This document shows, piece after piece, positions 5,806-58,049 of a stretch of DNA of 64,000 bases (position 1 is the first letter of the stretch; every line of letters begins with the position of its first letter). The DNA comes from Alphaproteobacteria bacterium. GTDB lineage: Bacteria > Pseudomonadota > Alphaproteobacteria > Rs-D84. The stretch lies in contig JAVBUT010000002.1 in assembly GCA_031555055.1 (NCBI GenBank), forward strand, positions 75,370-139,369. The letters run 5' to 3'. The notes under the pieces were generated by a model. It did no database searches. It saw only the letters and a program-made list of their open reading frames with translations, and had not been told where the DNA came from. The position numbers and the translations under genes were made by a program.

Positions 5806-5868
5806 TTTATGATTTCTGATTTACGATTTAATAAAAAAATCAGAAATCAGCAATCATAAATCAGAAAT
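5806..5868. repeat. imperfect hairpin built from 7-nt units (TGATTTN / AATCAGA family) abutting the metG start
   Basis: The left arm is tttatgatttctgatttacgattt. The right arm is aaatcagaaatcagcaatcataaatcagaaat and runs directly into ATG 5869. Confidence 0.85.
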
Positions 5869-7884
5869 ATGAATAACAAATTTTTAATCACATCTGCACT
5901 GCCGTACGTTAACAACGTCTTGCATATCGGACATCTGATCGGTTGCTGGCTGCCATCGGACGTATATGCGCGCTTTTGCCGCAGCATGGGTCGCGATGTC
6001 TTGTTTATATGCGGCGCAGACGAATATGGAACCACCAGCGAAATTGGTGCACTGAAAGAAGGCATGCCCGTCGAAGAATACGTTGACAAGTATCGCACAG
6101 AACACGAAAAATCTGTTCGGGATTTTAATTTGTCATTTGATCTGTACGGGCGCACGCATACAGAACTACATACAAAACTGGTACAATCATTATTCACGCG
6201 TCTGGACGAAGAGGGGTTGATTGAAGAACGTACATCAATTCAACCATATTCAGTAAAAGACAAAATGTTTCTGGCCGATCGGTTTGTTATCGGCACATGC
6301 CCGAAATGCGGGTATGACAATGCGTACGGCAACGAATGTGGCCAGTGCGGCACAACACTGGACCCTGGTGATCTGATCAGTCCGCACAGTGCCGTGAACG
6401 CTGATTCTCCGGTCGAAATGCGCGAAACAAAACATCTGTACATCAAACTGTCCGCTATGCAGGACAAATTGCGCGCATGGATAGACTCACGCGTCGGCTG
6501 GCCAAAAACCGCGCTGACTATTGCGAACAAATGGCTGGACGAAGGGCTGCGCGATACGCCGATTACACGCGATCTCAAATGGGGTATTCCGGTAAACAAG
6601 CCAGGGTACGAGAATAAGGTTTTCTATGTGTGGTTTGATGCGCCGTGGGGATATGTTTCAATTTCACAGGCTGCCACCAAAGACTGGGAATCATGGTGGA
6701 AAAATCCAGACTGCCACTACAGACAATTTATGGGCAAAGATAATGTTGCATTCCACGCCGTAACATTTCCATCGCAGCAATTGGCGATCAATGACGGATG
6801 GAAAATGGTCGATGTGCTAAAGGCTTTGAATTTTCTAAATTTCGAAGGCGCAAAAATATCAAAATCGACCGGCAATGGAATTTTCCTGAACGAGGCAATA
6901 AAAGACGCACCGGCGGACGCGTGGCGTTATGCATTAATGGCGTCCGCGCCGGAAACGGATGATACGGACTTTACTATCCAGCGCTTTGCCGATATTGTCA
7001 ACAAGGACCTGAACGGCATGCTGGGGAACTTTGTTTCGCGCGTATGCAAACTGACCGAAAAGAATTTCGGGAATCAGGTACCCGCAGGGGCGAATAATAT
7101 TCGTCCAAATCATCAGGGCGAATGTGATTCGCCCCTACAAAAATCAATCAATGAAAAATTATCGGAATTGACTGCTGCGCTGGACGCGTGCGAATTTCGA
7201 AACGCCGTATTCGCACTGCGCGGACTGTGGGCGATCGGCAACGAATTTATGACGGAAACAGCGCCATGGACGATGGTTAAAAATGGTGATATGGATGGCG
7301 CTGGGGCCGCATTAAACGAATGTTTTCAGCTGATCGATTTTTATGCACGCGTATCCGCACCGTTTATTCCGGACGCGGCGGGGAAAATGCTTCGCATTTT
7401 CAGGAATCAGGAACCAGGAATCAGTTGGCCAAGCGCGTACGAACGCCGCATTGCGGCCGGCACAGAATTTGTCGTACCTGAAAATCTTTTCGAAAGAATC
7501 GATGATGATAAAATTAAATTGTTAACCGAAAAATACGCGTCAAAGAAACTGGACGCGCCGAAAATTGTTACCGCGAAAATATTGACTGTGGACGCGCACC
7601 CGACCAAGGAAGGCCTGGCGGTTCTGACCGTGGACGCGGGCGATGAAAAACCGCTGACAATCGTCTGTGGCGCGCCGAATGTACGGCCGGGCTTTGTCGG
7701 CGTATTGGCACACGTTGGCGCGATTTTGCCCGGCCAGAAAAAGCCGATCACAAAACGCGCTGTCGCCGGCGTCGAAAGCCATGGCATGATGTGCAGCGCC
7801 GCAGAGCTGGGCGTCGGCCAGGACGGTGACAATATTTTGGAACTGGCCGGCGACAGTATGATCGGCGTAAAGTTTAACGCCTAG
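5869..7884 (+). CDS. metG: methionyl-tRNA synthetase with C-terminal tRNA-binding OB-fold domain
   Basis: HIGH-type motif (PYVNNVLHIGHL), Zn knuckles (CPKCG...CGQCG) and KMSKS-type motif (KISKSTGNG). The C-terminal roughly 105 aa form a tRNA_bind-type domain. Confidence 0.9.
   Translation: MNNKFLITSALPYVNNVLHIGHLIGCWLPSDVYARFCRSMGRDVLFICGADEYGTTSEIGALKEGMPVEEYVDKYRTEHEKSVRDFNLSFDLYGRTHTELHTKLVQSLFTRLDEEGLIEERTSIQPYSVKDKMFLADRFVIGTCPKCGYDNAYGNECGQCGTTLDPGDLISPHSAVNADSPVEMRETKHLYIKLSAMQDKLRAWIDSRVGWPKTALTIANKWLDEGLRDTPITRDLKWGIPVNKPGYENKVFYVWFDAPWGYVSISQAATKDWESWWKNPDCHYRQFMGKDNVAFHAVTFPSQQLAINDGWKMVDVLKALNFLNFEGAKISKSTGNGIFLNEAIKDAPADAWRYALMASAPETDDTDFTIQRFADIVNKDLNGMLGNFVSRVCKLTEKNFGNQVPAGANNIRPNHQGECDSPLQKSINEKLSELTAALDACEFRNAVFALRGLWAIGNEFMTETAPWTMVKNGDMDGAGAALNECFQLIDFYARVSAPFIPDAAGKMLRIFRNQEPGISWPSAYERRIAAGTEFVVPENLFERIDDDKIKLLTEKYASKKLDAPKIVTAKILTVDAHPTKEGLAVLTVDAGDEKPLTIVCGAPNVRPGFVGVLAHVGAILPGQKKPITKRAVAGVESHGMMCSAAELGVGQDGDNILELAGDSMIGVKFNA
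7401..7424 (+). repeat. 7-nt tandem array inside metG
   Basis: caggaat caggaac caggaat cag, translated in-frame as RNQEPGIS. Confidence 0.8.
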
Positions 7885-7890
7885 GTCAAC

Positions 7891-8193
7891 ATGAATCCGA
7901 AGATTTTGCAAATTTACTTGTCGCACGCAAACGTCACATACGCGCCGATATACGGCGAAACATTGTCATGCGCGGATTGCACAAATCTGGGCATTTGCGA
8001 AAAAGATCGATATCTGTTTATGCCGAATTGCGCGGTTGCGAATTTTATTATGGAACGTGTTCCCGGCAACATCAGGTATAACGAAGGCGCACGCACCATG
8101 ATCGTGTCATACCGCGAACCGCGAACGCGACTGACAACGTTGCAGCACGCCGTCGATACAGCAAAACAGCAATTTTTTGCGAAAATGAAATGA
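7891..8193 (+). CDS. hypothetical protein
   Basis: 100-aa ORF filling the metG-queH gap. Its stop overlaps the queH start (ATGA). I recognise no motif. Confidence 0.4.
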   Translation: MNPKILQIYLSHANVTYAPIYGETLSCADCTNLGICEKDRYLFMPNCAVANFIMERVPGNIRYNEGARTMIVSYREPRTRLTTLQHAVDTAKQQFFAKMK

Positions 8194-8852
8194 GAAACTC
8201 TGATATCCGTCTTGTATTAGTATCATGCTGTGCGCCGTGCAGCGCGGGCGCAATCAAACAATTAGTGGATATATGCTCCTTGTCAAACTCCCCCCTTGCG
8301 GGGGAGTCGACCACGCTGTCATGCGGGTCGGTAGGGGGTATAACAAACAATGCAGATACCCCCCACCGGCGCTACGTGTCGACTCCACCACAAGGGGGGA
8401 GTTTAACCGACTTCATCGTATTATTTTATAACCCTAATATTTATCCCGATACGGAATATCAAAAAAGACTGGCCGAGCAGGTTCGATACTGCGAATCACT
8501 TGGCGTGAAATATCATGTCGGCAATTATGATCATACTGCGTGGCTGCGCGAGATTGCAGGTACCGAATCCGAACCGGAACGCGGCGCACGATGTTCCAGA
8601 TGTTTCAAGTATCGCTTTAAATACGCCGCAGAATTCGCACGCACCAACGGATATAATGCAATTGCCAGCGTACTTGGTGTATCACGCCATAAAGATCAAT
8701 CGCAAGTCGATGCCGCTGCCATAAATGTTTTGACCGACATTAAATACATCCCGATTAAGTGGGATGACGAATTAAGATCAAAAATCAATAAAAAAGCCGG
8801 CTTTTACAGGCAAAATTATTGTGGTTGCGAATTCTCTATCCGGAAAGTATAA
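8190..8852 (+). CDS. queH: epoxyqueuosine reductase QueH (DUF208) carrying a 40-codon repeat insertion
   Basis: Conserved Cys motifs CCAPCS, RCSRCF and NYCGCEFS plus FYNPNIYP..EY match QueH. The segment SNSPLAGESTTLSCGSVGGITNNADTPHRRYVSTPPQGGSL is encoded by the palindromic element at 8285-8404. Confidence 0.75.
   Translation: MRNSDIRLVLVSCCAPCSAGAIKQLVDICSLSNSPLAGESTTLSCGSVGGITNNADTPHRRYVSTPPQGGSLTDFIVLFYNPNIYPDTEYQKRLAEQVRYCESLGVKYHVGNYDHTAWLREIAGTESEPERGARCSRCFKYRFKYAAEFARTNGYNAIASVLGVSRHKDQSQVDAAAINVLTDIKYIPIKWDDELRSKINKKAGFYRQNYCGCEFSIRKV
8285..8404. repeat. 120-bp GC-rich palindromic element inserted in-frame in queH (RPE-like)
   Basis: aaactcccccctTG...CAaggggggagttt are the outer arms, and gggggagtcgac/gtcgactcc and ggtagggggta/tacccccc(a)cc are inner arms. 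Related copies lie at 17900-17960 and 44078-44108. Confidence 0.8.
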
Positions 8853-10835: not shown

Positions 10836-12514
10836 TGAACTATATGCTAATGTTAAATTACGACGTAATCATCATCGGTGGGGGGCATGCGGGCGTGGAA
10901 AGCGCAACCGCATCTGCGCGCCGTGGCGCAAACACACTGCTGATTACAAAATCAAAATCCGACCTGGGGGCGATGTCATGCAATCCATCGATCGGTGGTC
11001 CCGGCAAATCACAAATGGTCGCAGAAATGGACGCACTGGGCGGGATTATGCCAATTGCGGCAGATCGCGCGGGAATTCATTGGCGAACGCTGAACGCGAC
11101 CCATGGCGCGGCAACGACGGCCTTGCGCGCGCAGATTGATCGTAAAAAATATCACAACGCGATTGTGGAAATACTATCAGATTATCCGAATTTGACTGTC
11201 GAGTTTGGCGATGTTGAAACATTGGATTTAGAAAATAAAATCGTCAATGGAAACTATTCGGCGCACGCGATTGTTTTAACCACGGGGACTTTCCTGGGCG
11301 GACTGGTCACACGCGGGGCCGAAAAAATCGAATCAGGTCGTCTGCGCGACGATAATACATACCAGGAAAACGATAAAAATATATCAAAAATACTGCAAAA
11401 GGCCGGCTTTTCGATATTAAGATTGAAAACCGGAACGCCCGCACGCATATGGCGCGATTCGATTGATTTTTCCGTCTGCGAAGTGCAATCCAGTGATCTG
11501 GAACACGAATATTTTTCCGGAACGCCACGAATCACGAATCACGAACCACAAATCACGAATTGCTATATCACACACACAAACGAATCTGTTCATCAGTTTA
11601 TCCGCGATAATATTACCGACGCGCCGATGTATAACGGCGATATAACAGGCACCGGGCCGCGATATTGCCCAAGTCTGGAAGACAAGGTCATGCGTTTTCC
11701 GGAACACAAATCGCACCATGTTTTTCTGGAACCCGAAGGCACGGACAGTGATCTGATTTATCCCAACGGAATTTCAACCAGTATGAGTGCCGACGCCCAG
11801 GACAAATGGATACGCATGATCCCAGGACTGGAGAATGCGCGGATCGAACGGTACGGATATGCGATCGAATATGACGCGATTGACGCACGTGCACTGAAAC
11901 CGACGTTGGAATCCAAAGATATTCCGGGACTGTTTTTTGCCGGCCAGATCAACGGCACATCCGGATACGAAGAAGCCGCCGCCCAAGGCATCGTTGCAGG
12001 CGCGAATGCGGCCGGATGTGCGATGGGCGAATATGATTCTCCCATACAAATCGATCGCACGAATTCCATGATCGGGGTTATGATTGACGACATCACAACG
12101 CTGGGCGTGGACGAACCTTACCGTATGTTCACATCACGCGCGGAATTTCGATTGTCGCTGCGCGCGGATAATGCAATTGCGCGTCTGGGTGATATGGCGG
12201 TCAAATTAAATTTGATAACGGAACCCGAACGAAAACAAAAACATGATCAAAAGGCCGGTAAAATCACCGAAAATGATAAATTTTATGCCGGATATATCGC
12301 ACGGAATTTGCGCGAAATCGAAAGTTATAAACGCGATGCAGATTTAAAAATCCCGGAAAATTTCGATTATAAATCATTACCGGGCCTGACCAATGAATTG
12401 GTTGAAAAATTATCCAGAACACGTCCCGCGAATATCGCGTCGCTGGCGCGGATTCCGGGAATTACCCCGGCGGGAATCATGGTCGTACTGCGCAAAATAA
12501 GGACAGGGAATTAA
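10835..12514 (+). CDS. mnmG: tRNA uridine-5-carboxymethylaminomethyl modification enzyme MnmG (GidA)
   Basis: YDVIIIGGGHAGVE FAD motif, GPRYCPSLEDK, and the C-terminal RIPGITPAG. The start is ambiguous (ATG 10835, 10844 or 10850, all in frame). Confidence 0.9.
   Translation: MNYMLMLNYDVIIIGGGHAGVESATASARRGANTLLITKSKSDLGAMSCNPSIGGPGKSQMVAEMDALGGIMPIAADRAGIHWRTLNATHGAATTALRAQIDRKKYHNAIVEILSDYPNLTVEFGDVETLDLENKIVNGNYSAHAIVLTTGTFLGGLVTRGAEKIESGRLRDDNTYQENDKNISKILQKAGFSILRLKTGTPARIWRDSIDFSVCEVQSSDLEHEYFSGTPRITNHEPQITNCYITHTNESVHQFIRDNITDAPMYNGDITGTGPRYCPSLEDKVMRFPEHKSHHVFLEPEGTDSDLIYPNGISTSMSADAQDKWIRMIPGLENARIERYGYAIEYDAIDARALKPTLESKDIPGLFFAGQINGTSGYEEAAAQGIVAGANAAGCAMGEYDSPIQIDRTNSMIGVMIDDITTLGVDEPYRMFTSRAEFRLSLRADNAIARLGDMAVKLNLITEPERKQKHDQKAGKITENDKFYAGYIARNLREIESYKRDADLKIPENFDYKSLPGLTNELVEKLSRTRPANIASLARIPGITPAGIMVVLRKIRTGN
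11526..11560 (+). repeat. 7-nt tandem array inside mnmG
   Basis: cacgaat cacgaat cacgaac cacaaat cacgaat, translated as PRITNHEPQITN. Confidence 0.8.
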
Positions 12515-13037: not shown

Positions 13038-13113
13038 GCCGATGTAGCTCAGCTGGTAGAGCATCTCATTCGTAATGAGGGGGTCGCAAGTTCAAATCCT
13101 GTCATCGGCACCA
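13038..13113 (+). tRNA. tRNA-Thr (anticodon CGT)
   Basis: Acceptor GCCGATG/CATCGGC followed by ACCA. D arm GCTC-AGCTGGTA-GAGC and anticodon loop TTCGTAA. There is one mismatch in the T stem by my fold. Confidence 0.85.
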
Positions 13114-13125
13114 CATAAAATTGTT

Positions 13126-13149
13126 AATGGACGCACTTTTGCGTCCATT
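13126..13149 (+). terminator. hairpin downstream of tRNA-Thr(CGT)
   Basis: aatggacgca-cttt-tgcgtccatt followed by taaaatttt. It is paralogous to the hairpin after tRNA-Thr(GGT). Confidence 0.5.
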
Positions 13150-13331
13150 TAAAATTTTATAGTGCCCACCGTAGTCCGCCAACGGCGCGACGAATGTCGG
13201 GCTATCCAAAAACACATAAAACTTTTTCATCACCGGCTTTTTTGCCGGTTTTTTATTGCGGAATTGCTTCCTGATGATTGTCGGAATCTTTTGTTATAGT
13301 ATTCTGTACAAGTTTACACAAAGGAGAAACT

Positions 13332-14102: not shown

Positions 14103-17100
14103 ATGTCATATAAAAAGACAGATGCAAAAGCGAATTTTACGGCGATCGAACACGAAATGCTGAACGCATGGCGCAGTGGAAATATATTCCATAAATCGCT
14201 GAAACAGACCGAATCCGGAAAACCGTTCAGCTTTTATGACGGACCGCCGTTTGGAAACGGTCTGCCGCACTGGGGGCACTTGGGCGTAACCGCGGTAAAA
14301 GATATGGTATGCAGATACCAGACGATGACTGGTCGCCATGTCCAGCGCGAGCTGGGGTGGGACTGTCACGGATTGCCGGCGGAAAATTCGGTCGAGAAAA
14401 AACAAAAGCGCAGCGCCAAGGATATTGTCGCAAATGACGGCATGGACGTGTTCTGTGATATGTGCCGCATTGACGTCATGACATATACCAAAGAATGGGG
14501 CAGATTTATCGAACGTATGGGTCGCTGGGTTGATATCGGCGACGAATACGGATATCGCACAATGGACCGCGATTATATGGAATCCATGCTGTGGACCTTG
14601 AAAACACTGTATGACCGCGGACTGCTGTACAAGGATTATTCCGTAAACTGGTTCGACTGGGTCAATGGCACAATCGTTTCCAATTCCGAAGCGTCCCAGG
14701 ATTACCGTGATGTTGTCGACGACGCAGTAACGGTATGGTTTGGGCTGGAGAACGGCAGACGGGTTTTGGCATGGACAACGACGCCATGGACGCTGCCTGC
14801 AAACTCTGCCTTGGCCGTGAATCCAAAAATGCAATATGCCGTTATGCGGGACAACGACGGCGCGGAATACATCATCGCAGAATCCAGATTGACCGCCTAT
14901 GAAAAACAGTTCGCAGATGCGACACGCGTCGGCACAATATCTGGCGCGGACCTGGTCGGTTTAAAATATGCACCACTGTTCAATTATTATACCGATGAAA
15001 AGCTGTACCGCATAATTTCCGCCGATTACGTCAGCGACGGCGACGGTACCGGAATCGTGCACATTGCGCCGGCGTATGGCGCCGAAGATTTTTGGGCGGT
15101 AAAGAACATCGACCCGGAATTCCCGGTCATCCTGAACGTCGACAACTATGGAAACTTTACGGCCGATGTTACTGATTTTGCAGGCCAGAATATCTTTGCG
15201 GCCGGGCCACAGATTATCGAAAACCTTAAAAAGGCCGGTAATTTGGTCAAAAAAGAACAATACAAGCACAACTATCCGTACGGCGACCGGTCGCACGAAA
15301 AGTTGATCCAGCGCGCGACTGATTCCTGGTATATCAATGTGCCAAAAATCAAGGATAAACTGCTGGCTAATAATGCAAAGGTTAATTGGACTTCGGCTGG
15401 CGAGCGTTTCCGCGCATGGATTGAAAATGCGCGTCCTTGGGCGATTTCGCGCAACCGTTTCTGGGGAACACCATTGCCGATCTGGACACGTGGCGGCGAA
15501 TTCAAAGTATTCGGATCAATCGCAGAATTGGAAGAATTCTTTGGCGTAAAGATAAACGATCTGCATCGCCCGACATTGGATGCATTGGAAAAAGACGGCT
15601 GGAAACGCATTCCGGACGTTCTGGATTGTTGGGTGGAATCCGGGTCAATGCCATGGGCGTCGCTGCACTATCCGTTCGAAAACACCGACAAATTCAATGC
15701 AACATTTCCGGCGGATTATATTATCGAAGGCCAAGATCAAACCCGCGGATGGTTCTATGCGCTGATGGTTTTGGCGACCGCATTGTTTGATCAGCCTGCA
15801 TTTATGACCGTATCTGCGAACGGTATGATCGTTGATGAAAACAAAAAGAAATTTTCAAAATCATTAGGTAACTTTGTAAATCCCGAAGGACAAATTGAAC
15901 AGTTTGGCGCAGACGCGATCCGCCTGTTCATCCTGGGGTCTAATTTCATGAAGGCCGAGCCTGTCCCCGTCGACAAGGAAGGCAAAGTATTTGCCGAGCC
16001 GATAAAATCGGTCCTGACTCCGTTATGGAATGCGTATCATTTCTTTACGCTGTATGCGAATGCTGGGGATATAAGTGTCAGTGTCAGTGACAGTGTCAGT
16101 GACAGTGTCACCAGAAATATCCTTGACCAATATATTGTCGCAGAATTGGATAGTTTGGTCATCGTCGCGCGCGACGCACTGGACGCATATGCACCAGACC
16201 GTGCACTTGCCAGTGTCACAAGGTTCTTGGACATTTTAAACAACTGGTACATACGTCGTTCACGGGAACGTTTCTGGGACGAAGAGCAGGGCGCATTCGA
16301 TACACTGTACTTTGTTCTGACCGAGCTTTGTAAATTGCTGGCGCCATTCGCACCGTTTATATCAGACTATATCTATAAAAATCTGACAGGCGCAGAATCC
16401 GTGCATCTAGAGAAGTTCCCAGGAATCAAGAATCAAGAATCAGATGCTAATAGTCTGCTGGCCAATATGCGCCAGATTCAAACAATCGTATCCGTCGGGA
16501 AACAGTTGCGTGAAAAGTATGGTATGCGTAATCGCTTGCCGTTGGCATCTATGACGCTGGCTGCGACAAACATCGGCGCGTTTGATAATGCGTACAAAGA
16601 AATTATCGCAGACGAACTGAACGTCAAAAACGTAAACATCGTTGATGAAATTTCATCAGTTGCTGACAGTTTTGTATACCTGATCACGCCGAAAATCGGT
16701 GCGCGTCTGGGTGGCGCGTTGAAAGAAATCATCCCGGCCGTCAAGAATGGAAATTACACTATCGACAACGGGCAACTTATTGTCGATACGATTCACGATT
16801 CACAGTTCACGATTCACGACGATGAATTCGAATCACGTTTAACCATAAAGCCGGGCATCACCGGCGCGGCGCTGCCGGATAATACTGCGGTGGTTGTTCT
16901 GGATACCGAATTGAATTCGGAATTGATCGCCGAAGGTTTGGCAAACGACGCATTGCGCTTTATCCAGGATACGCGCAAGACCGTTGGGTTAAATGTTTCC
17001 GATCGCATAACACTGGAATACAGTGCTGATCCTGCATTGGCGGATGCGATGGAATCGCATCGCGCACGTATCATGGCCGACACATTGGCAACTGATATGA

Positions 17101-17171
17101 TCCGCGGGGCCGGCGAACATTCGACCGAAATCGAAGGATATAATTTTGCAATAACGATCAAAAAGGCATAA
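14103..17171 (+). CDS. ileS: isoleucyl-tRNA synthetase, type 2 (eukaryote-like)
   Basis: FYDGPPFGNGLPHWGH (type-2 style HIGH region) and KFSKSLGN (KMSKS). It is 1022 aa and carries three in-frame short-repeat arrays. Confidence 0.9.
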   Translation: MSYKKTDAKANFTAIEHEMLNAWRSGNIFHKSLKQTESGKPFSFYDGPPFGNGLPHWGHLGVTAVKDMVCRYQTMTGRHVQRELGWDCHGLPAENSVEKKQKRSAKDIVANDGMDVFCDMCRIDVMTYTKEWGRFIERMGRWVDIGDEYGYRTMDRDYMESMLWTLKTLYDRGLLYKDYSVNWFDWVNGTIVSNSEASQDYRDVVDDAVTVWFGLENGRRVLAWTTTPWTLPANSALAVNPKMQYAVMRDNDGAEYIIAESRLTAYEKQFADATRVGTISGADLVGLKYAPLFNYYTDEKLYRIISADYVSDGDGTGIVHIAPAYGAEDFWAVKNIDPEFPVILNVDNYGNFTADVTDFAGQNIFAAGPQIIENLKKAGNLVKKEQYKHNYPYGDRSHEKLIQRATDSWYINVPKIKDKLLANNAKVNWTSAGERFRAWIENARPWAISRNRFWGTPLPIWTRGGEFKVFGSIAELEEFFGVKINDLHRPTLDALEKDGWKRIPDVLDCWVESGSMPWASLHYPFENTDKFNATFPADYIIEGQDQTRGWFYALMVLATALFDQPAFMTVSANGMIVDENKKKFSKSLGNFVNPEGQIEQFGADAIRLFILGSNFMKAEPVPVDKEGKVFAEPIKSVLTPLWNAYHFFTLYANAGDISVSVSDSVSDSVTRNILDQYIVAELDSLVIVARDALDAYAPDRALASVTRFLDILNNWYIRRSRERFWDEEQGAFDTLYFVLTELCKLLAPFAPFISDYIYKNLTGAESVHLEKFPGIKNQESDANSLLANMRQIQTIVSVGKQLREKYGMRNRLPLASMTLAATNIGAFDNAYKEIIADELNVKNVNIVDEISSVADSFVYLITPKIGARLGGALKEIIPAVKNGNYTIDNGQLIVDTIHDSQFTIHDDEFESRLTIKPGITGAALPDNTAVVVLDTELNSELIAEGLANDALRFIQDTRKTVGLNVSDRITLEYSADPALADAMESHRARIMADTLATDMIRGAGEHSTEIEGYNFAITIKKA
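16074..16109 (+). repeat. 6-nt tandem array (AGTGTC/AGTGAC) inside ileS
   Basis: Six hexamer units, translated as SVSVSDSVSDSV. Confidence 0.85.
16421..16444 (+). repeat. 7-nt tandem array inside ileS
   Basis: aggaatc aagaatc aagaatc aga, translated as GIKNQESD. Confidence 0.8.
16788..16820 (+). repeat. 7-nt tandem array inside ileS (inverse orientation of the AATCGTG family)
   Basis: acgattc acgattc acagttc acgattc acgac, translated as TIHDSQFTIHDD. Confidence 0.8.
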
Positions 17172-17174
17172 GGA

Positions 17175-17603
17175 ATGACAAAAAAGAAAGAAATTATAAA
17201 CGCGGCAGAAAAAAAGTTCGTGGGCAAAATGCACCCGATTACAAAAAAGTATCTGGAACAATTGTACGGTATGACCCGAATATTCGCTTCATGCGACGCC
17301 TTTGGAAATTACACAGATACCGAAGATTGTTTCTGCATATACCCAAACAACAAGGACCAGATCGGACAAATTACAAATCTGCTGGCGATGGTAGGTGTTC
17401 AAAAAATAAAAGAAATAACCGTCAAGGCACCGAAAACGGAAACAGTGATTCTGTTGCCATATCTGGCCAGCAATATTGGATTCCAACGCATTGCGGTCGA
17501 AATGATCGCAAAAGAATTCAAAGACATGGCCCATAAAAACAATGACCTGATGTTTTCATCGATAAAACAAATGTACGCCGCCGAACAAGGCAAAAACAGG
17601 TAA
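17175..17603 (+). CDS. hypothetical protein
   Basis: 142-aa ORF tightly packed between ileS and nth. Its stop overlaps the nth start. Confidence 0.4.
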   Translation: MTKKKEIINAAEKKFVGKMHPITKKYLEQLYGMTRIFASCDAFGNYTDTEDCFCIYPNNKDQIGQITNLLAMVGVQKIKEITVKAPKTETVILLPYLASNIGFQRIAVEMIAKEFKDMAHKNNDLMFSSIKQMYAAEQGKNR

Positions 17604-18310
17604 TGAAATTAACACCGGAAATTTATTTTCGCGAAGTGCCCCGGGTTCTGGACATGGATATCCGGACAGAGTTATACACGACAAATGAATTCACATTGGC
17701 GGTGGCGGTGATTTTGTCGGCCCAGACAACCGACAAACAGGTTAACACTGTGACGCCAACGCTGTTCGCGATTGCAGACACGCCGGAAAAGATGTTGGTT
17801 TTGGGCGAAAATGGTTTGAAAAACCATATCAAAACAATTTCATTTTTTAATAACAAGGCAAAAAACATTATCGGATTATCAGTACAACTGGCACAGACTA
17901 ATTACTCCCCCCCTGAGGGGGAGTCGACCGCGCCATCATGCGGGTCGGTGGGGGGTAATTCCGACTGGAAATTTTCACCCGAATACCACAATCGCGACGC
18001 GCTGATGAAATTGCCGGGGATTGGTCAGAAAACCGCGAATGTCATAATGAACGTTTGCTGGGGTGAACCATTGCTGGGGGTGGACACGCACGTATTCCGC
18101 AATGCACACCGTTATGGATGGGTTGATAAATCAGACAATACGCCTGAAAAAGTTGAAGCAAAATTAATGAAATTTATTCCGAAAAAGTACCACGCAATGG
18201 CGAATCACGTAATGGTCTTGCACGGGCGTTATATATGCCAGGCCCGCCACCCAAAATGCGGTGAATGTCCGGTTGCAAAATGGTGCGAATCCAAGGATAA
18301 AATTATTTAA
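17603..18310 (+). CDS. nth: endonuclease III with repeat-encoded insertion
   Basis: HhH-GPD features (LPGIGQKTANVIMN, GVDTHVFR) and the 4Fe-4S motif C..R.PKCGECPVAKWC. There are about 22 extra aa (PPEGESTAPSCGSVGGNS...) between the helices compared with E. coli Nth. Confidence 0.85.
   Translation: MKLTPEIYFREVPRVLDMDIRTELYTTNEFTLAVAVILSAQTTDKQVNTVTPTLFAIADTPEKMLVLGENGLKNHIKTISFFNNKAKNIIGLSVQLAQTNYSPPEGESTAPSCGSVGGNSDWKFSPEYHNRDALMKLPGIGQKTANVIMNVCWGEPLLGVDTHVFRNAHRYGWVDKSDNTPEKVEAKLMKFIPKKYHAMANHVMVLHGRYICQARHPKCGECPVAKWCESKDKII
17900..17960. repeat. GC-rich hairpin element (half-size RPE-like copy) inside nth
   Basis: aattactccccccctgagggggagtcgaccgcgccatcatgcgggtcggtggggggtaatt is nearly identical to the left half of the queH element. 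Confidence 0.8.
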
Positions 18311-20345: not shown

Positions 20346-20394
20346 GTAATTCGTGACTCGTGATTCGTGACTCGAATTACGAATCACGAATTAA
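20346..20394. repeat. 7-nt array hairpin in the pheS-pheT intercistronic gap
   Basis: gtaattc gtgactc gtgattc gtgactc gaattac gaatcac gaattaa, with inverted matches gtaattcg/cgaattac and cgtgattcg/cgaatcacg. Confidence 0.85.
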
Positions 20395-20397
20395 GAG

Positions 20398-21384
20398 TTA
20401 CGACTTTATCTGTTTAAACACCCGCATATCCATTCCGTACAATTCCCGCATATTTGCGCCGGTAAATTCGCCGGCCAGGCGCGATGTGCCGAATCCGAAT
20501 GCAAAGCCAGTCACGCGGTCCGGATCAAACCCGAAATTTCGCATAACACGTGGCGACACCATTCCCGCGCCCACAATTGTAATCCATTTCCCGGACGCGG
20601 TTTTAATGTCTGCGCCGATTGACGGTTCGGTGTATGGGTAATACTTTGGCTTGAATCGCACTTGGACTTCCGGACCATAAATCTCGCGCAGGATATATTC
20701 CAGCGTACCCTTTAATTCTGAAACTTTCATATCATGACCAACCATCAGACCTTCGAATTGATGAAATATCGCCAGGTGGGTTGCATCGACGGCTTCGTTA
20801 CGATAAACGCGGCCCGGGGAAACAATACGTATCGGCAGTTTGGATTCATCACCTTTTAAATCCATCATATAACGGCTTTGCACGGATGTGGTGTGCGTAC
20901 GCAGGACGATTTTATCTTTCTTGATCCAGAAAGTGTCCTGCATATCGCGGGCAGGGTGGTTTTCATCAATATCCAACAGATCGAAATTGTACTTTGGCTC
21001 CTCTACCTCTGGTCCGGTAACCGCGACAAAGCCCAGACGCGCCATGGCGGCGATACACTTTTCTTCGATAACCGACACCGGGTGGCGCGCGCCGCATTCC
21101 GTACCAATACCCGGCAGGGTCATATCAAAGGTATCATTTTGCAATTTCTGATTTATGATTGCCAATTGCTGATTTTTCTTGGCATTCTCGATCAGTTCTT
21201 CAATTTCCATGCGCAGTTTATTAATTTCAGCACCCGCCGCGGCACGTTTATCCGGCGTCAGATCGCGCAAGGCGTCCATTTGCGCCTTGATCTCGCTTTT
21301 TTTGCCCAAGTATTTGGATTTTATATTATCCAAGTCCTGGGGCGTCTTTGCGCCGGCTAATTCTTTTTGCAGTTCTTTGATCAT
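20398..21384 (-). CDS. pheS: phenylalanyl-tRNA synthetase alpha subunit
   Basis: Class II motifs ([19 protein letters not shown]-like [15 protein letters not shown]) and a typical coiled-coil N-terminus. Confidence 0.9.
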
Positions 21385-21752
21385 AATTTATACTCCGTAC
21401 CCGGTTTTGCGTTTTCTGGCAATTCCAATATCCCGCTGTGGTCGTTCGACAGACCCAGTTCCTTGGCCGAACACATCATGCCAAATGATTCCACCCCGCG
21501 CAAGGCAATCGGCGCCAGTGCGTCCGTTTCCCCAGGCAAGATCGCCCCAGGGCGGGCCAATACGCCGACAAACCCCGCACGTACGTTCGGTGCGCCACAG
21601 ACGATCTGCTGTATGTCGCCGCACCCGCAATCAACGCGCAGCACATGCAGCCGGTCCGCATTCGGATGTTTTTCAACCGCGATGATTTTCGCGACGACCA
21701 GTGTCGGTGCGGATTTTTCTTTTTTTGAAAATAATTTTTTTAACCAGTTCAT
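21381..21752 (-). CDS. stand-alone tRNA-binding OB-fold protein equivalent to the PheT B2 domain
   Basis: [25 protein letters not shown]...[11 protein letters not shown]...[29 protein letters not shown] aligns motif for motif with E. coli PheT residues about 45-150. Its stop overlaps the pheS start (ATGA). Confidence 0.8.
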
Positions 21753-22465: not shown

Positions 22466-22528
22466 CGTGATTCGTAATTAGTGATTCATGATTCGAAAAC
22501 CATAAATCATAAACTACCAATCATAAAT
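22466..22528. repeat. 7-nt tandem array upstream of rpmI
   Basis: cgtgatt cgtaatt agtgatt catgatt cgaaaac cataaat cataaac taccaat cataaat. A second short array (acgaatc acaagtc acgaatc) lies at 22613-22636. Confidence 0.8.
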
Positions 22529-22710
22529 TAAGCTTTGATGGCAACGCCGTGCCATTTCAAGCCCGCCAATTATTGCTTAAAATATAAAAAAAGCAAGTTT
22601 TTTATTCGATTTACGAATCACAAGTCACGAATCACGTTTAAGTTTTTATTGAATGTTATGATTTTAAATATTACCCTGACCCTGTAAAACACATTCCCGG
22701 ACATAATGTT

Positions 22711-23532
22711 ATGAACCAAAAAAAGATATCTTCACGCGTTTATCAGATAGTTAAATCCGCCCTGGCGGCCGCAATTTTGCCGGTGTTTTTGATATATATT
22801 ATGATTGATAAGCCCGATTACAGGATAATGAACGCCGCGTCCCATGTCGTTCTGCCGGTGGCGAACTGGGTCGGTGACGTGGTTTCGTGGCCAATCCGCG
22901 CAATCGGCAATGCTGTTGGCGGAATCCGCGAACTGTCGAATCTGCACGACGAGAACGAAGAACTGCGTGCAAAACTGGACGAAAATCTGCAGGCCCGCCA
23001 CGAATACGATGTCGCAATATCGGAAAACCAGCGTCTGCGCCGGGAATTGGACATTGCGCGCGCCATGCCGCAAAAGGTGATCGTCGCCGGCGTTTCGTAC
23101 GATAATTCCGCATTTCATCATAATACGTTCTTTATAAACAAGGGTGTAAACGCCGGGATAGAAGCCGGCATGGCGGTCGTGTCGTTTGACCGCGTCTTGG
23201 TCGGCATAGTATCCGATGTTGGCGCGAATTTCGCACGGGTGCGCGCGCTGGCCGATTCCAAGTCAAATATTCCGGTCCGCATCGCCGGATCAGAAGTATA
23301 TGGATTTTTGGCCGGCAACGGTTCTGACGGGGCATCAATCGGATTTTTGAGTGATCCGGAATTCCAGGCGACACCAGGGCTAAAACTGATCACCAGCAGC
23401 ATTCGCGGCGTATTGCCGGACGGAATTTATGTCGGCGAAATGACAAACGACAAAGACGTTAACATTCTGCCAATGTCGCGCGTCAGCGATGTAATGGTGC
23501 TGCAGTTTAATAACAAGGACAGATATAAGTGA
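22711..23532 (+). CDS. mreC: rod shape-determining protein MreC
   Basis: N-terminal TM segment, coiled coil (ENEELRAKLDEN...NQRLRREL) and beta-barrel domains (GMAVVS...LVGIVSDV). It sits upstream of mreD, mrdA and rodA. Confidence 0.85.
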   Translation: MNQKKISSRVYQIVKSALAAAILPVFLIYIMIDKPDYRIMNAASHVVLPVANWVGDVVSWPIRAIGNAVGGIRELSNLHDENEELRAKLDENLQARHEYDVAISENQRLRRELDIARAMPQKVIVAGVSYDNSAFHHNTFFINKGVNAGIEAGMAVVSFDRVLVGIVSDVGANFARVRALADSKSNIPVRIAGSEVYGFLAGNGSDGASIGFLSDPEFQATPGLKLITSSIRGVLPDGIYVGEMTNDKDVNILPMSRVSDVMVLQFNNKDRYK

Positions 23533-23591
23533 CAGTGTCAGTGTCAGTTACAGAAAAGGTTACTGACACTGACACTGACACTGACACCGAC
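23533..23591. repeat. hexamer-array hairpin (GTGACA)n / (TGACAC)n in the mreC-mreD gap
   Basis: gtgacagtgtcagtgtcagt-tacagaaaaggtta-ctgacactgacactgacactgacac. A near-identical copy lies at 47906-47968. Confidence 0.85.
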
Positions 23592-24032
23592 ATGAAATAC
23601 ATACGTCTCATCTTTCCGTTTCTGGTCACGATTTTATTGTGGCGGTTATCGGTGCCGTTTTGGAATCCGGCCGGTATTCTGGCCATGATTCCGATATTCT
23701 ATTATTCTTTTATTCGCCCAACGCCATGGTTTGCGCCATTCGCAGGAATTTTTTGTTTTTTGATCGACTATCGGTTTGATACACTGTTGTTTTGGACATC
23801 ATTGTACTGTTTGTTTTACGCGGTGAACGGATTGCAGAACTTTGTCGATCTGACACGGCAAAAGTACGACGGCGCACTGGTGTTCCTGGGATACTTTGGC
23901 GCCGCATTGCTGATACTGGCGCTGATGGGATGGAACTGGACCGGACTGGCGCGCGCTATATGGCTGTTTCTGTGGGCTGGAATATGGTATATGCCTTTTA
24001 CATCATTATCAAAAAGGTTGCTTGATGATTGA
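23592..24032 (+). CDS. mreD: rod shape-determining protein MreD
   Basis: Multi-pass hydrophobic protein of about 146 aa in mreC-mrdA context. I prefer ATG 23592 to GTG 23529, whose extra residues are purely repeat-encoded (TVSVSVTEKVTDTDTDTDTD). Confidence 0.7.
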   Translation: MKYIRLIFPFLVTILLWRLSVPFWNPAGILAMIPIFYYSFIRPTPWFAPFAGIFCFLIDYRFDTLLFWTSLYCLFYAVNGLQNFVDLTRQKYDGALVFLGYFGAALLILALMGWNWTGLARAIWLFLWAGIWYMPFTSLSKRLLDD

Positions 24033-31319: not shown

Positions 31320-32414
31320 TTAATTATTAAACAAAAAGTGACAAATGTCGCCGTCGTTCATAACATAATCCCGGCCGACCAGACGCATTTTGCCGGCATC
31401 CTTGACAGCAACCTCGGACCCAAGTGTGATATAATCGCTAGGCGATATGATTTCCGCGCGGATAAAACCTTTTTCAAAATCAGTATGTATCTTGCCGGCG
31501 GCTTGGGGCGCGGTCATCCCGCGACTGATTGTCCATGCGTGCGCTTCCTTAGGGCCGATCGTATAAAACGTCTGCAGACCCAATGTTTCATATCCTGTGC
31601 GGATAATCTGTGACAGGCCGGATTCGGTCAGGCCCAGTTCATCCAAAAACATTTTACGCTCGGCCGGATCGACAATTTGTGAAATTTCCATTTCTATTTT
31701 TGATGAAATTACCAGAACCGGTGATGTATTTCCAAACTTTTCAGTCACAGCGCGCGAATATTCGTTGCCAGTGGCGGCGGCTGATTCTTCGACATTACAC
31801 ACGTAAATTACCGGCTTTTCGGTTAATAAATTGAAAAGATTTCCGATTTCTGATTTCTGATTTCTGATTTGATCCCTGGCCGGTGTTCCGTCCTCTAGCC
31901 CTTTTTTAATTTCATTCGCCAGGTCCAATTGTTTTATCGCTTCCTTGTCCTGGCCGCGGGCCTTTTTGGTTAAATTCGCAATCTGTTTATCCAAAGATTC
32001 CAAGTCAGCCAGCATCAGTTCTGTTTCAATAATATCAATATCGGCCAATGGGTCTATGCGGCCGGCAACATGCACAATATCATCGTTTTGAAAACAACGT
32101 ACGACATGTATGATCGCGTCTGTCGCCAAAATATTGCCCAAGAATTTATTCCCCAAACCTTCGCCAGATGACGCCCCTTTGACCAGGCCCGCTATATCGA
32201 CAATTTCCAGTTGGGTCGGGATTATTTTTTGCGAACCGGCAACCGTGGCCAGTTTGTGCAACGTCTCGTCCGGAACAACCACGCGGCCTGTGTTCGGCTC
32301 TATGGTGCAAAAAGGATAGTTTTGGGCATCGGCTGTGGCACTCATCGTCAATGCGTTAAACAATGTTGATTTACCAACATTCGGCAGTCCTACAATTCCA
32401 CAGTTGAATCCCAT
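31320..32414 (-). CDS. ychF: ribosome-binding ATPase YchF
   Basis: GIVGLPNVGKSTLFNAL P-loop and a TGS-like C-terminus (GFIRAEI). Confidence 0.9.
   Translation of the reverse strand: MGFNCGIVGLPNVGKSTLFNALTMSATADAQNYPFCTIEPNTGRVVVPDETLHKLATVAGSQKIIPTQLEIVDIAGLVKGASSGEGLGNKFLGNILATDAIIHVVRCFQNDDIVHVAGRIDPLADIDIIETELMLADLESLDKQIANLTKKARGQDKEAIKQLDLANEIKKGLEDGTPARDQIRNQKSEIGNLFNLLTEKPVIYVCNVEESAAATGNEYSRAVTEKFGNTSPVLVISSKIEMEISQIVDPAERKMFLDELGLTESGLSQIIRTGYETLGLQTFYTIGPKEAHAWTISRGMTAPQAAGKIHTDFEKGFIRAEIISPSDYITLGSEVAVKDAGKMRLVGRDYVMNDGDICHFLFNN
31838..31872 (-). repeat. 7-nt tandem array inside ychF
   Basis: The forward strand reads gatttcc gatttct gatttct gatttct gatttga. In the sense orientation this is the AATCAGA family, translated as IRNQKSEIGN. 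Confidence 0.8.
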
Positions 32415-32430
32415 TAAAAACTCCGTTTTT

Positions 32431-32465
32431 TATTTATGATTGCTGATTTATGATTTATGATTTAT
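32431..32465. repeat. 7-nt tandem array (GATTTAT family)
   Basis: gattgct gatttat gatttat gatttat, lying between ychF and the SufD-like gene and containing that gene's candidate start codons. Confidence 0.8.
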
Positions 32466-33173
32466 ACTTTGGTTACTATGAACTACTTGTGGCAAGAATT
32501 CAATATAAAAACCTTTCCATCCGAAACGATTGTGTTTCGTGACGGGGTGTTTCAACCCGAATTATCAACTGTCCGCGAATCAGATTTTAATAATCCAGAA
32601 TCAGATATTATTATAAACAAAGTTCATGATCTGCCGATCCATATAATTTATATTGGTGAAATTGATGGACAACATAATATTAAAATTAATTTATCTGCGC
32701 CGGAACAACCGGTGTTTTTAACCGTAAAAATTCAAAATAAAAAGCCGGCTTTTTTAAACATTTTTGTTAAAAACACCGGTAAAAATTCGGAATTTAATGG
32801 GAACATATTGGCACAAAATTATTCTGAACTCTTGGTTGAAACAACCGGTCTGCATATGGCACCAGATACAAATATATTTATAAAAACAAAAGTTGTCGCG
32901 CACAAATCCACAGACACCAAATTAACCGGCGCTGCAATAATTGAACCTGTTTGTAAAAATTGTAAATCTGATATTGAATTTTCTGTTCTGGCCGATCCAT
33001 CCGCAAAAATAATGTTTGAACCAAAACAACTGATATCCGCCGCACCGGAATCAGCTGAACACTCTGCATCCTTATATAAAGGTACTGCGCCACAGATTGA
33101 ATACTTACGCACCACAGGCATGGGCACGTTGGAAATTAAAAAAATTCTGGAAGAAGCGTTTATTAATAATTAA
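32457..33173 (+). CDS. SufD/SufB-family (UPF0051) domain protein, short orphan
   Basis: The C-terminal pattern ...EPKQLISAAPESAEHSASLYKGTAPQIEYLRTTGMGTLEIKKILEEAF parallels the SufD ADDVKcSHGAtvG..d.eqiFYLrsRGi...A..ll..aF segment. There is no sufB, sufC or sufS nearby. The start is uncertain (ATG 32457 or 32478). Confidence 0.45.
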   Translation: MIYTLVTMNYLWQEFNIKTFPSETIVFRDGVFQPELSTVRESDFNNPESDIIINKVHDLPIHIIYIGEIDGQHNIKINLSAPEQPVFLTVKIQNKKPAFLNIFVKNTGKNSEFNGNILAQNYSELLVETTGLHMAPDTNIFIKTKVVAHKSTDTKLTGAAIIEPVCKNCKSDIEFSVLADPSAKIMFEPKQLISAAPESAEHSASLYKGTAPQIEYLRTTGMGTLEIKKILEEAFINN

Positions 33174-43990: not shown

Positions 43991-44259
43991 TAGTCGATAG
44001 TCATTAGTAGGGGCGCAGTCCGAAACGCGCCCCCTACATAAAAAAAAGTATGTCACCCCCCTCGGTCGCTTTGCGACCACTCCCCCCGCAAGCGGGGTGA
44101 GACGCGACAGAGCGTAGGGGCGCATACTTGCGCCCTTTGTTTCTCGTACGCGCGGGTTTGTAGGGGCGCAGTCCGAAACGCGCCATCTGATTTAACTGGG
44201 TTGCTTCGCGTTCGCTCGCAATGACGGATTTGTTCTTAATCACTAAATACTATCGACTA
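43991..44259. mobile_element. MITE-like composite repeat with 18-bp terminal inverted repeats
   Basis: The left end is tagtcgatagtcattagt (43991-44008). The reverse complement of the right end (44242-44259) is tagtcgatagtatttagt, a 16/18 match. The interior is packed with GC-rich hairpins (gtaggggcgca... three times, plus an RPE-like core at 44078-44108) and has no ORF. Confidence 0.4.
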
Positions 44260-47905: not shown

Positions 47906-47968
47906 TGACAGTGACAGTGACAGTGACAAAAGTGGTCGCTGACACTGACACTGACACTGACACTGATT
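47906..47968. repeat. hexamer-array hairpin filling the ATPase-platform intercistronic gap
   Basis: gtgacagtgacagtgacagtgaca-aaagtggtcgc-tgacactgacactgacactgacactg. It is the twin of 23533-23591. Confidence 0.85.
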
Positions 47969-53076: not shown

Positions 53077-53448
53077 ATGACTTTATATGAAGAAACAATA
53101 AACTTGGTAAATCAAATTATAACCACAGGATCAAGCGGTATAAACGACAGCAAGAGACTTGCGCTGGTTGTCCGTTTAAAAGAACATCTGCAACGCCCAG
53201 AGGTTGCGATACCACAACGTACATTAAAAGCGAATTTAGAAAGAGTTTTAAACAATCGCCAACATTACATGACGACTTCTGATTTTATAAATGATTTAAT
53301 TATGGTAGTTGATGATTTTAAAAAGAAAACGATTTTATTGGATAAGGCAAAACAAAAAATGAAATCTGTTTCTGATTCTGTCCAAGATTTTACAATCGCA
53401 GAAGACGGTACGATAATCCGACATAATTTCAATGATCGGGAAAAATAA
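53077..53448 (+). CDS. hypothetical protein
   Basis: 123-aa ORF. Its stop overlaps the next start (TAATG). I recognise no motif. Confidence 0.35.
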   Translation: MTLYEETINLVNQIITTGSSGINDSKRLALVVRLKEHLQRPEVAIPQRTLKANLERVLNNRQHYMTTSDFINDLIMVVDDFKKKTILLDKAKQKMKSVSDSVQDFTIAEDGTIIRHNFNDREK

Positions 53449-54206
53449 TGTTCACACGCGAATGGTTTTTTGATCTGGATCGGCGTCTGCGTGATGCCGG
53501 CTTGGATTCAGACCGTTCGACGTTTGATGAAATATTAAAAAATCTTCAACCCGCCGCCGCCAAGGCTATGGCGGGCAAAGAAAGCCGGCTTTTGACACCT
53601 GATGAATTCGCACACGAGTGTATTTACGTAATCCTGGCGTCCGGGTTTTCACAAAAAACCGCCAAACGAAAACATACCGAGATTATGGAATATATCAAAA
53701 AGGCCGGTAAAAATCCAATTTTGGAAGAATTGTTAAAAATTTTTAACAACAAAAACAAAATGAATGCGATTATTAAAATTTGGAACAATCGTGAACGGTA
53801 TCAAAACGACTATTATTCAATTAAAAAAAATCATAAATCAGAAATCATAAATCAGAAATTGACTTTTTTATCCACGTTGCCACACATTGGAAAAATAACC
53901 GCGAATCATCTGGCGCGGAATCTGGGTGAAAACGTTGTGAAATACGATATTTGGATTCAGCGACTTGGTGTTTGCTTTGCAAACAAATTCTCAAATTGCA
54001 ATGTTCAAAGTTCAAATATAGATAATGGTAAACTTTGTCCGGAAATTAAATCCGCATGCGATGAAATGTTTGCGCATTTGTCGCGCGAGACAAATCTGCC
54101 AATCGGATATATTGACGTCGTGTTATGGAAGGCAAGCCAGAATAATTTAATTCCACTCCTGCGGAGTGGTGTCGGCGCTGTTTTGCGCGACGGGGAGGGT
54201 TCATGA
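53448..54206 (+). CDS. helix-hairpin-helix protein, possible DNA-glycosylase-like
   Basis: LSTLPHIGKITANHLARNLG looks like an HhH motif. The gene is translationally coupled to ung and contains a 7-nt array. This is a weak call. Confidence 0.3.
   Translation: MFTREWFFDLDRRLRDAGLDSDRSTFDEILKNLQPAAAKAMAGKESRLLTPDEFAHECIYVILASGFSQKTAKRKHTEIMEYIKKAGKNPILEELLKIFNNKNKMNAIIKIWNNRERYQNDYYSIKKNHKSEIINQKLTFLSTLPHIGKITANHLARNLGENVVKYDIWIQRLGVCFANKFSNCNVQSSNIDNGKLCPEIKSACDEMFAHLSRETNLPIGYIDVVLWKASQNNLIPLLRSGVGAVLRDGEGS
53828..53862 (+). repeat. 7-nt tandem array inside the HhH protein gene
   Basis: aaatcat aaatcag aaatcat aaatcag aaattga, translated as NHKSEIINQKL. Confidence 0.85.
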
Positions 54207-57759: not shown

Positions 57760-57930
57760 CTGGTCAAGACGTTATTACCCGCCCCAAATGGGCGGGTCGA
57801 AATGCGTCAGCATTTCGGGGTGGGGCAGGAATGTGGAATAATGTATAGTTTTTATAACCACACCCCGAAAAATGCAGCGCATGAGCGGCTTGCATTTTTC
57901 GGCCCGCCCGGGGCGGGCGGGTGATAACAA
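57760..57930. repeat. cluster of four GC-rich hairpins
   Basis: acccgcccc-aaat-gggcgggt, cgaaatgc-gtca-gcatttcg, ccgaaaaatgca...tgcatttttcgg and gcccgccc-gggg-cgggcgggt. Confidence 0.7.
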
Positions 57931-57975: not shown

Positions 57976-58049
57976 GCCCGCATAGTATAGTGGTAGAACA
58001 CGTCCTTGGTAAGGACGAGGCGCAAGTCCGATTCTTGCTGCGGGCACCA
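57976..58049 (+). tRNA. tRNA-Thr (anticodon GGT)
   Basis: Acceptor GCCCGCA/TGCGGGC followed by ACCA, anticodon arm CGTCC-TTGGTAA-GGACG, T arm GCAAG-TCCGATT-CTTGC. Confidence 0.85.

Follow-up and report, generated by a model that had tools for sequence, protein, structure and literature searches.

A solo hairpin module in frame within an alphaproteobacterial endonuclease III gene, and its family's association with DUF559 genes

What is a short palindromic segment doing inside the intact gene of a DNA-repair enzyme, and where might it have come from? The question is raised by nth, the endonuclease III gene, on a 64,000-nucleotide (nt) stretch of contig JAVBUT010000002.1 (positions 75,370 to 139,369 of the forward strand; assembly GCA_031555055.1, an Alphaproteobacteria bacterium), which we call the window and whose coordinates are used throughout. 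A sequence-only reading of the window had described, within nth, a half-size copy of a palindrome that also lies in frame in queH. Having compared both copies with orthologues, with the rest of the window and with public genomes, we consider it probable that the nth segment is a solo arm of a selfish, GC-rich hairpin repeat family with a DUF559-bearing autonomous form, the copies within genes being tolerated as translated passengers without host function.

The nth copy, ctccccccctgagggggagtcgaccgcgccatcatgcgggtcggtggggggta, lies on the plus strand at 17905-17957, within the open reading frame (ORF) 17603-18310, and a covariance model of the element matches it at 17902-17957 with 62.5 bits (E = 8e-15). 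It is a single arm, composed of one hairpin, a second hairpin and a GGTGGGGGG tail. That it is in frame and inserted relative to orthologues, as the sequence-only reading held, is borne out by the closest Nth orthologue (P0002, from GCA_031554955.1), which is 82% identical, is encoded in the same gene order as in the window (ileS-nth-pheT) and shows a clean gap of exactly 51 nt (17 codons) at the insert position. The insert does sit between the helix ending ...IIGLSVQL and the helix-hairpin-helix (HhH) motif. Set against E. coli Nth (PDB 2ABK), the part ahead of the HhH motif is longer by 23 residues in the window protein, close to the 22 or so that had been proposed, but only 17 of them are the element; the remainder belongs to an extension common to the lineage, as seen in the orthologue alignment. 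The residues aligned with the catalytic Lys (K143) and Asp (D161) and with the four cluster Cys positions are invariant in that alignment. An AlphaFold2 model of Nth, computed on the orthologue alignment, has a mean predicted local distance difference test score (pLDDT) of 82.8 and falls below 50 solely at residues 101-119, which are the insert; together with the kept catalytic and Fe-S residues, this argues that the host tolerates the insert. A TAATT direct repeat flanks the nth copy, although this may be chance. The best Nth homologues come from metagenome-assembled genomes (MAGs) of uncultured Alphaproteobacteria or "Rickettsiales", and the source sequencing run is labelled as an invertebrate gut metagenome.

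The queH copy lies at 8288-8340 within ORF 8190-8852, which encodes a 220-amino-acid (aa) QueH by Pfam. A repeat search of the window aligned 8287-8340 to 17904-17957 with 89% identity over 54 nt, and a 24-nt degenerate pattern spanning hairpin 1 and the junction (CTCCCCCCNTGNGGNGGAGTCGAC) matched the window only at 8288 (+), 8378 (-) and 17905 (+); three matches were reached in none of 100 dinucleotide-preserving shuffles of the window. The similarity is above chance, as had been supposed, and the two quoted sequences stand where they were said to stand, with encoded peptides (SPPEGESTAPSCGSVGG and SPLAGESTTLSCGSVGG) identical at 13 of 17 residues. The arms differ in that queH carries GGTAGGGGG where nth has GGTGGGGGG. 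The whole queH palindrome, 8285-8404, measures 120 nt or 40 codons and is in frame, and QueH is correspondingly long, at 220 aa vs about 180 aa in orthologues. Folded as single-stranded DNA, the palindrome reaches -41.8 kcal/mol (z -7.7). Calling the nth copy a half-size version of this element was apt, as it amounts to one arm of the full palindrome.

Run on the window without filters, the covariance model of the module (R1) finds five loci, all of which fold as two hairpins and a tail: those in nth and queH are gene-internal and in frame, one stands at a gene end and two are intergenic (Table 1). The module at the gene end forms the last approximately 18 codons of ORF 53448-54206, directly upstream of a gene of the uracil-DNA glycosylase (UDG) family. 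The full palindrome beginning at 57775 lies between a short-chain dehydrogenase/reductase (SDR) gene and a tRNA, with its plus arm at 57775-57827 and its minus arm at 57856-57924. The diverged copies preserve hairpin 1 through paired changes (CCCGCCC/GGGCGGG and CCACTCC/GGAGTGG). The non-coding relative that had been reported near 44.08 kb is real and intergenic, but is a minus-strand module at about 44048-44104 (24.2 bits). The expectation of many more copies genome-wide is borne out only in part: the wider family is dense, with five loci in 64 kb, but the close sub-family is small. In the source DNA run, contigs at 85% or greater likeness to the nth copy show only three loci (nth, queH and a 576-nt contig with a palindromic copy, which is also present in a metatranscriptome contig), and a scan of JGI metagenomes for the sub-family's hairpin 2 returned 0 matches. 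The sequence-only reading was right in substance: its observation is confirmed, and its interpretation is partly supported. It did not notice that two hairpins and a tail make up a module, that this module is spread across phyla, or that DUF559 endonuclease genes are associated with it. Separately, three GTAG-tagged hairpins (GTAGGGGCGCAGTCCGAAACGCGCCCC) at 44007-44035, 44114-44135 and 44160-44185 surround the diverged module at 44048 within one intergenic region, and these resemble classical repetitive extragenic palindromes (REPs).

Table 1. Features of the nth gene and of the hairpin modules in the window (window coordinates).
Feature	Position	Strand	Support or remark
queH, left arm, complete module	8285..8340	+	covariance model 58.7 bits
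queH, palindrome spacer (loop)	8341..8356		
queH, right arm, module with shortened hairpin 2	8357..8404	-	covariance model 51.3 bits
nth (endonuclease III) gene, 235 aa, intact	17603..18310	+	Pfam HhH-GPD, HhH, EndIII 4Fe-4S motif
Solo module in nth, 51 nt = 17 codons, encodes S102-G118	17905..17955	+	gap in closest orthologue
Hairpin 1 of nth copy, CTCCCCC / GGGGGAG, 7 bp, 5-nt loop CCTGA	17905..17923	+	
Hairpin 2 of nth copy, TCGACC...GGTCGG, T:G pair at base, inner stem CGC/GCG	17924..17949	+	
Purine tail of nth copy, TGGGGGGT(A)	17950..17957	+	
Diverged solo module, intergenic	44048..44104	-	R1 24.2 bits, E 1e-4
Diverged module, hairpin 1 CCACTCC/GGAGTGG	54148..54202	+	R1 13.4 bits, E 0.1, marginal
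Diverged full palindrome, hairpin 1 CCCGCCC/GGGCGGG	57775..57924		R1 33.8 and 17.6 bits, z -8.1

Across the family, the module reads A-CTCCCCCC-TTGA-GGGGGAG (hairpin 1), TCGAC-(variable stem-loop)-GTCGG (hairpin 2) and TGGGGGG (tail), the inner stem of hairpin 2 being the part that varies. A full element runs from a module through a spacer, CCCCCCACC and a third hairpin to hairpin 1 in reverse complement; there CCCCCCACC pairs with the tail, so that the tail of the nth copy corresponds to the one that pairs with CCCCCCA of the opposite arm in full elements. Such full inverted-arm copies are found at 8285-8404 and 57775-57924 in the window and also in loci L011, L025 and L074. Searching one genome per species with the pattern CTCCCCCNNNNNGGNGGAGTCGAC gave at least 117 stretches; the window's own genome is not among the matches listed. 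About 50 of the listed stretches have no tail and are matches by chance in genomes of high GC. The second hairpin and the TGGGGGG tail, both of which lie outside the search pattern, are present in about two thirds of the listed stretches (76 instances).

Covariation was assessed on an alignment of 28 distinct short-form copies from several phyla, with the three window arms included. Hairpin 1 is invariant in this alignment, and hairpin 2 shows compensatory changes in all five inner pairs, with 38 double-change cells, a number equalled in none of 500 shuffles; its inner stem is paired in 94% of cells, a share that drops to 43-60% on shifting the 3' partners by one to three columns. At the base of hairpin 2, all 28 copies have a T:G pair. 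Regarding this T:G as a mismatch substrate of the Vsr type would be mere speculation, since both bases are invariant and neither pairing nor mismatch can be read from them.

By their MAG labels, the carriers of the module include Alphaproteobacteria, Gammaproteobacteria (Pseudohongiella, Arenicellales), Nitrospinota, Acidobacteria, Acidimicrobiia and other Actinomycetota, Deferribacteraceae and several unclassified bacteria. The local GC around module copies ranges from 0.29 to 0.70, which indicates that the carrier genomes truly differ, though individual labels can err. A scan of 2.9 million viral contigs in IMG/VR for the general module returned 0 matches and thus no sign of phage carriage. 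We also observed that CAMCSJ01, a 30%-GC MAG doubtfully labelled 'Rickettsia typhi', has at least 10 intergenic solo modules whose hairpin 2 is long, at 40 nt (in L019, L047, L049, L056, L073, L092, L099, L101, L105 and L107).

The loop of Nth that holds the window insert has taken such DNA elsewhere too. Nth orthologues range from 209 to 261 aa, with the length differences confined to the insert loop, and four longer orthologues (L123-L126) carry full palindromes of the same architecture at that loop. The palindromes of L126 and L124 match R1 at E = 4e-5 and 1e-4, respectively, and those of L123 and L125 have a TTCCCCTCC-type hairpin 1. Copies within other genes whose host domains were confirmed lie in mnmG (L126), a P-type ATPase (L090) and an AddB-like nuclease (L108), with a histidine kinase (L072) possibly a further host; the mnmG (gidA) copy is a full palindrome at L126 6339-6436, and its product has 615 aa vs 550-563 aa in relatives. 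At least two of the module's sense frames and three of its antisense frames are in use, yielding peptides such as SPLEGES, PPLRGS, STPPQGGS, LPLKGG and DSPSGGE. Hairpin 1, whose consensus loop is CTTGA, has one of its six frames closed, by TGA. The use of several frames and of both orientations suggests selection on an open frame and not on a particular peptide.

The association with DUF559 is seen in queH. In GCA_031554955.1, whose Nth lacks the insert, queH (L121) encodes 368 aa and carries a 540-nt in-frame insert at a second site (L121 3451-3990), arranged as module, DUF559 ORF, anti-tail, hairpin and inverted hairpin 1. DUF559 is a domain of unknown function that is very common and has a Vsr/homing-endonuclease fold of the PD-(D/E)XK type, and that of the L121 insert scores 123.5 bits against PF04480 with its D...E-x-D-G motif intact. 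A hidden Markov model built from this domain was used to find similar units. The ileS gene of an alphaproteobacterial MAG (L036) and an hsdS-like gene of Pseudohongiella (L074) each contain, in frame, a module, a DUF559 ORF and an inverted module, and the same arrangement is present on an Acidimicrobiia contig (L010). P0241 (L127) is a second queH with a DUF559 unit, and P0295 a second hsdS case, each at the same site as the first. The second queH site is found in three states by lineage, namely a full unit (L121, L127), a short remnant (P0150) and empty (the window queH).

More generally, when ORFs within 1.5 kb of modules were clustered at 66 loci, DUF559 was the sole genuine protein family to recur, and no RAYT (REP-associated tyrosine transposase) or other transposase was among these ORFs, although the clustering would overlook a transposase present at one or two loci. 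Starting from the enzyme gives the same picture: the flanks of 60 of the closest 120 DUF559 homologues contain a peptide that a C-run/loop/G-run hairpin encodes, and such motifs number 79 in 4,482 flank residues vs 0 in 12,805 domain residues. When DUF559 genes were picked only for lying on long contigs, all five had inverted hairpin-plus-tail flanks, and four of the five match R1. The physical linkage between module and DUF559 is a direct observation. We found no paper linking DUF559 with repeats in our literature search; the domain has been classed with Vsr and the homing endonuclease I-Bth0305I (PMC3424549), and homing-endonuclease genes that lie within phage genes are known to include Vsr-like nucleases (PMC3239194). 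In L131 a DUF559 gene stands between two direct copies of about 230 nt (~1750-1995 and ~2400-2640) that contain hairpin modules, which suggests insertion into an existing repeat array.

How these units might give rise to the segment in nth can be sketched as follows. Two inverted modules make up a full palindrome, as in queH, and two inverted modules around a DUF559 ORF would be the autonomous form. If the linkage has the mechanistic meaning that we infer, the DUF559 nuclease may mobilise hairpin-ended units, with the palindromes as ORF-less derivatives, like the miniature transposable elements with inverted repeats (MITEs) of insertion sequences; alternatively, DUF559 may be a homing-endonuclease gene, which would cut empty palindromes at their centre and be copied into them by repair. 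The nth segment would be a passive remnant, having been inserted as a single module or left by a palindrome that lost one arm in a multiple of three bases. Copies within genes would survive only where the frame is kept, stop codons are absent and a surface loop is permissive, the Nth loop before the HhH motif being such a site. There the module would be transcribed and translated with the gene into 17 disordered residues without a host function. So understood, the nth insert is an in-frame palindromic passenger of the kind already known from the Rickettsia palindromic elements (RPEs), and it is likely neutral.

Several points weigh against this account and should be stated together. The repeated insertion in the Nth loop could also be one old insertion that later diverged. 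No DUF559 gene is present in the 64-kb window and none was found in Nth orthologues among the best 120 matches, and the hairpins could be the target of DUF559 instead of its ends. No target-site duplication is consistent across copies, with no repeat comparable to the TAATT at the ends of the queH or 57775 elements, and no defined target was found. The RNA runs of the source study show no coverage of nth, so that translation of the insert is presumed. The close sub-family is small, and the evidence for spread across phyla depends on the labels of MAGs, and these can err.

Among other explanations, one is that the module is a functional RNA related to Whalefall-1, which would be retained because it acts as a small RNA or influences the mRNA in cis (its stability, its processing or the pausing of ribosomes). 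The covariation of hairpin 2 and its invariant T:G (U:G) pair would fit, as would the presence of the palindromic copy in a metatranscriptome contig, and the closest Rfam family is indeed Whalefall-1, which matches the layout of two hairpins and a purine tail. However, hairpins in single-stranded DNA account for the covariation equally well, and the copies face either way relative to genes, lie in coding as well as intergenic DNA, form inverted pairs and flank an endonuclease gene, with no common gene context at the 66 loci. Rfam scores of 13.2 and 25.5 bits also fall short of the gathering cut-off of 37; at gathering thresholds Rfam finds only tRNAs in the whole window, and permissive scans add spurious miRNA-hairpin matches and sub-threshold Whalefall-1 matches. 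We therefore regard a functional RNA as improbable, and we give a similarly low standing to the proposal that the module is a REP or REPIN repeat moved in trans by a tyrosine HUH transposase (RAYT or TIRYT, IS200/IS605-like) with DUF559 as an unrelated neighbour. In favour of this, the family has short hairpins as singlets and inverted doublets, a strand asymmetry and no consistent target duplication; REPs inside genes have been described, with an enrichment in repair genes (PMC3733652). On the 3' side of hairpin 2, CGTC is found in many members of the family (though not in the window copies), which recalls the CGTC-tagged REPs without a known transposase, and separate GTAG-tagged hairpins are present in the window at 44007-44185. 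Nevertheless, the GTAG tag is missing from the nth copy and from the family consensus, modules flank DUF559 in every case examined, and DUF559 alone recurs near modules at the 66 loci, where a transposase occurring at only one or two of them would be missed.

Two further explanations concern the protein and seem to us very unlikely. The insert might be skipped in expression, either through a ribosomal bypass like that of T4 gene 60 or the mitochondrial 'byps' or through excision from the RNA, giving Nth without the 17 residues. The segment of about 50 nt does begin with a stable hairpin and has identical AAT codons (N100, N119) 54 nt apart on either side, and phage homing-endonuclease elements carry such compensation devices (bioRxiv 10.1101/2022.08.31.505936). 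Yet no stop or rare codon follows the would-be take-off codon, and all copies seen within genes, including the DUF559 units of about 540 nt, are in frame and free of stops, which would be needless if they were skipped. An intein was considered and rejected, as the insert has 17 aa vs a minimum of about 130 aa and the DUF559 inserts lack the C-terminal His-Asn. The extra loop could instead be adaptive, having been added to the Nth of this lineage as, for instance, a new surface for interactions, with its repeat origin incidental. Inserts at the same loop in many orthologues speak for this, but they vary in length, sequence and frame, and the closest orthologue has none; the loop is predicted to be disordered, and intergenic regions and unrelated genes contain the same DNA. 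We accord this last idea as little weight as bypass, and a translated passenger from a hairpin repeat family is the reading of the nth insert that we favour.

The window contains other repeats that are distinct from the module. Hexamer GTGWCA arrays, a second repeat family, occur at 16075-16110, 23512-23602 and 47898-47967; the first is in frame inside ileS (14103-17171), where it encodes SVSVSDSVSDSV, and the other two are palindromic arrays of the form (GTGACA)n...(TGACAC)n. A third family consists of tandem heptamer arrays (AATCAGA, AATCACG and variants, on either strand) at 5833-5868, 11525-11560, 16416-16443, 20373-20406, 22482-22640, 31838-31871, 32426-32471, 41894-42247 and 53810-53860. 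The arrays that were compared with the ORF lists lie between ORFs except for 16416-16443, which is inside ileS, and the same heptamers flank the third close copy of the element in its metagenome contig. A 104-nt direct repeat (58044-58147 and 59701-59804, 96% identity) starts at the 3' end of the tRNA at 57976-58046, and a weaker relative at 13138-13175 stands just past the tRNA at 13038-13110. Finally, a 74-nt inverted match of 84% joins 7660-7733, in the 3' part of metG, to 21532-21605, some 14 kb downstream; judging from the Pfam lists of relatives, this is probably the common tRNA-binding domain of MetRS and PheT and not a mobile repeat.

Palindromic repeats in frame within housekeeping genes have been known since the RPEs, but to our knowledge their movement has never been explained, and no mobilising enzyme has been known for 25 years. 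The repeat described here is tied by shared structure and sequence to units with a single candidate enzyme, DUF559, which makes the old question testable, as one can ask whether the module is cut or bound by DUF559. As far as we have searched, the novelty lies in a defined module of two hairpins that several phyla share, and in the consistent linkage of this module to DUF559 genes that are themselves read through in frame in essential genes. A bolder generalisation, which we hold tentatively and think somewhat more apt to fail than to stand, is that the hairpin module and DUF559 form an undescribed class of mobile element spanning phyla, in which the nuclease spreads or homes into hairpin-ended units that essential genes tolerate through in-frame read-through; RPE-like and 'orphan' CGTC-type intragenic palindromes would then be ORF-less derivatives, and the Whalefall-1 'RNA' a member. 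If true, this would provide a function for a large orphan protein family. That the Nth loop has taken different inserts repeatedly is also of use in choosing permissive insertion sites in proteins and in judging annotation artefacts, for instance predicted proteins that end in low-complexity 'PPLRG/PLKGG' tails.

The nearest known relatives in architecture and placement are the RPEs (Ogata et al. 2000; PMC10969869), which are likewise multi-copy palindromes lying in frame in unrelated housekeeping genes at surface-compatible positions, in an alphaproteobacterial host lineage (the relatives here are labelled Rickettsiales or Alphaproteobacteria) and without a nearby transposase. The nth insert is, in the same manner, repeated, hairpin-forming palindromic DNA that is in frame in an intact gene and absent from orthologues. 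It differs in being a 51-nt half element, and its module is found in several phyla, whereas RPEs belong to one genus; several reading frames are used, and complete units carry a DUF559 ORF. REPs and REPINs, including the CGTC-tagged REPs for which no transposase has been identified (Di Nocera et al. 2013, PMC3733652), also comprise single hairpins or inverted doublets, some of them in DNA-repair genes, but where these have one stem-loop the module is a fixed pair of hairpins with a tail. The layout of the module recurs in Whalefall-1 RNA (RF01762; Weinberg et al. 2010, PMC2864571), which was described from whale-fall metagenomes only, as a non-coding RNA of unknown function: both have a 7-bp pyrimidine/purine hairpin whose loop is UUGG-like, then a variable second hairpin and a 3' tail rich in purines. 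The Whalefall-1 model scores 13.2 bits at 17902-17957 and 25.5 and 23.8 bits in L074, all below the cut-off of 37, and has no match in L127-L131.

MITEs resemble the family in their terminal inverted repeats, their lack of coding capacity and their being commoner than the ORF-bearing form; in the family, no target-site duplication was seen consistently, and the ORF-bearing form encodes DUF559 and not a DDE or known transposase. Elements of Vsr-like homing endonucleases (the I-Bth0305I family, PMC3239194, and the VSR-like genes of T4-like phages) similarly place a small nuclease gene in essential genes, flanked by two halves of a conserved sequence, and the full, degenerate and empty states of the second queH site follow that pattern. 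The nth copy itself carries no endonuclease ORF, and the related units in L121, L127, L036, L074 and L010 carry DUF559. Unlike the Vsr-like homing elements, these units involve neither intron nor intein and are read through in frame as host protein, their flanks are structured hairpin repeats, and their short ORF-less derivatives are far commoner.

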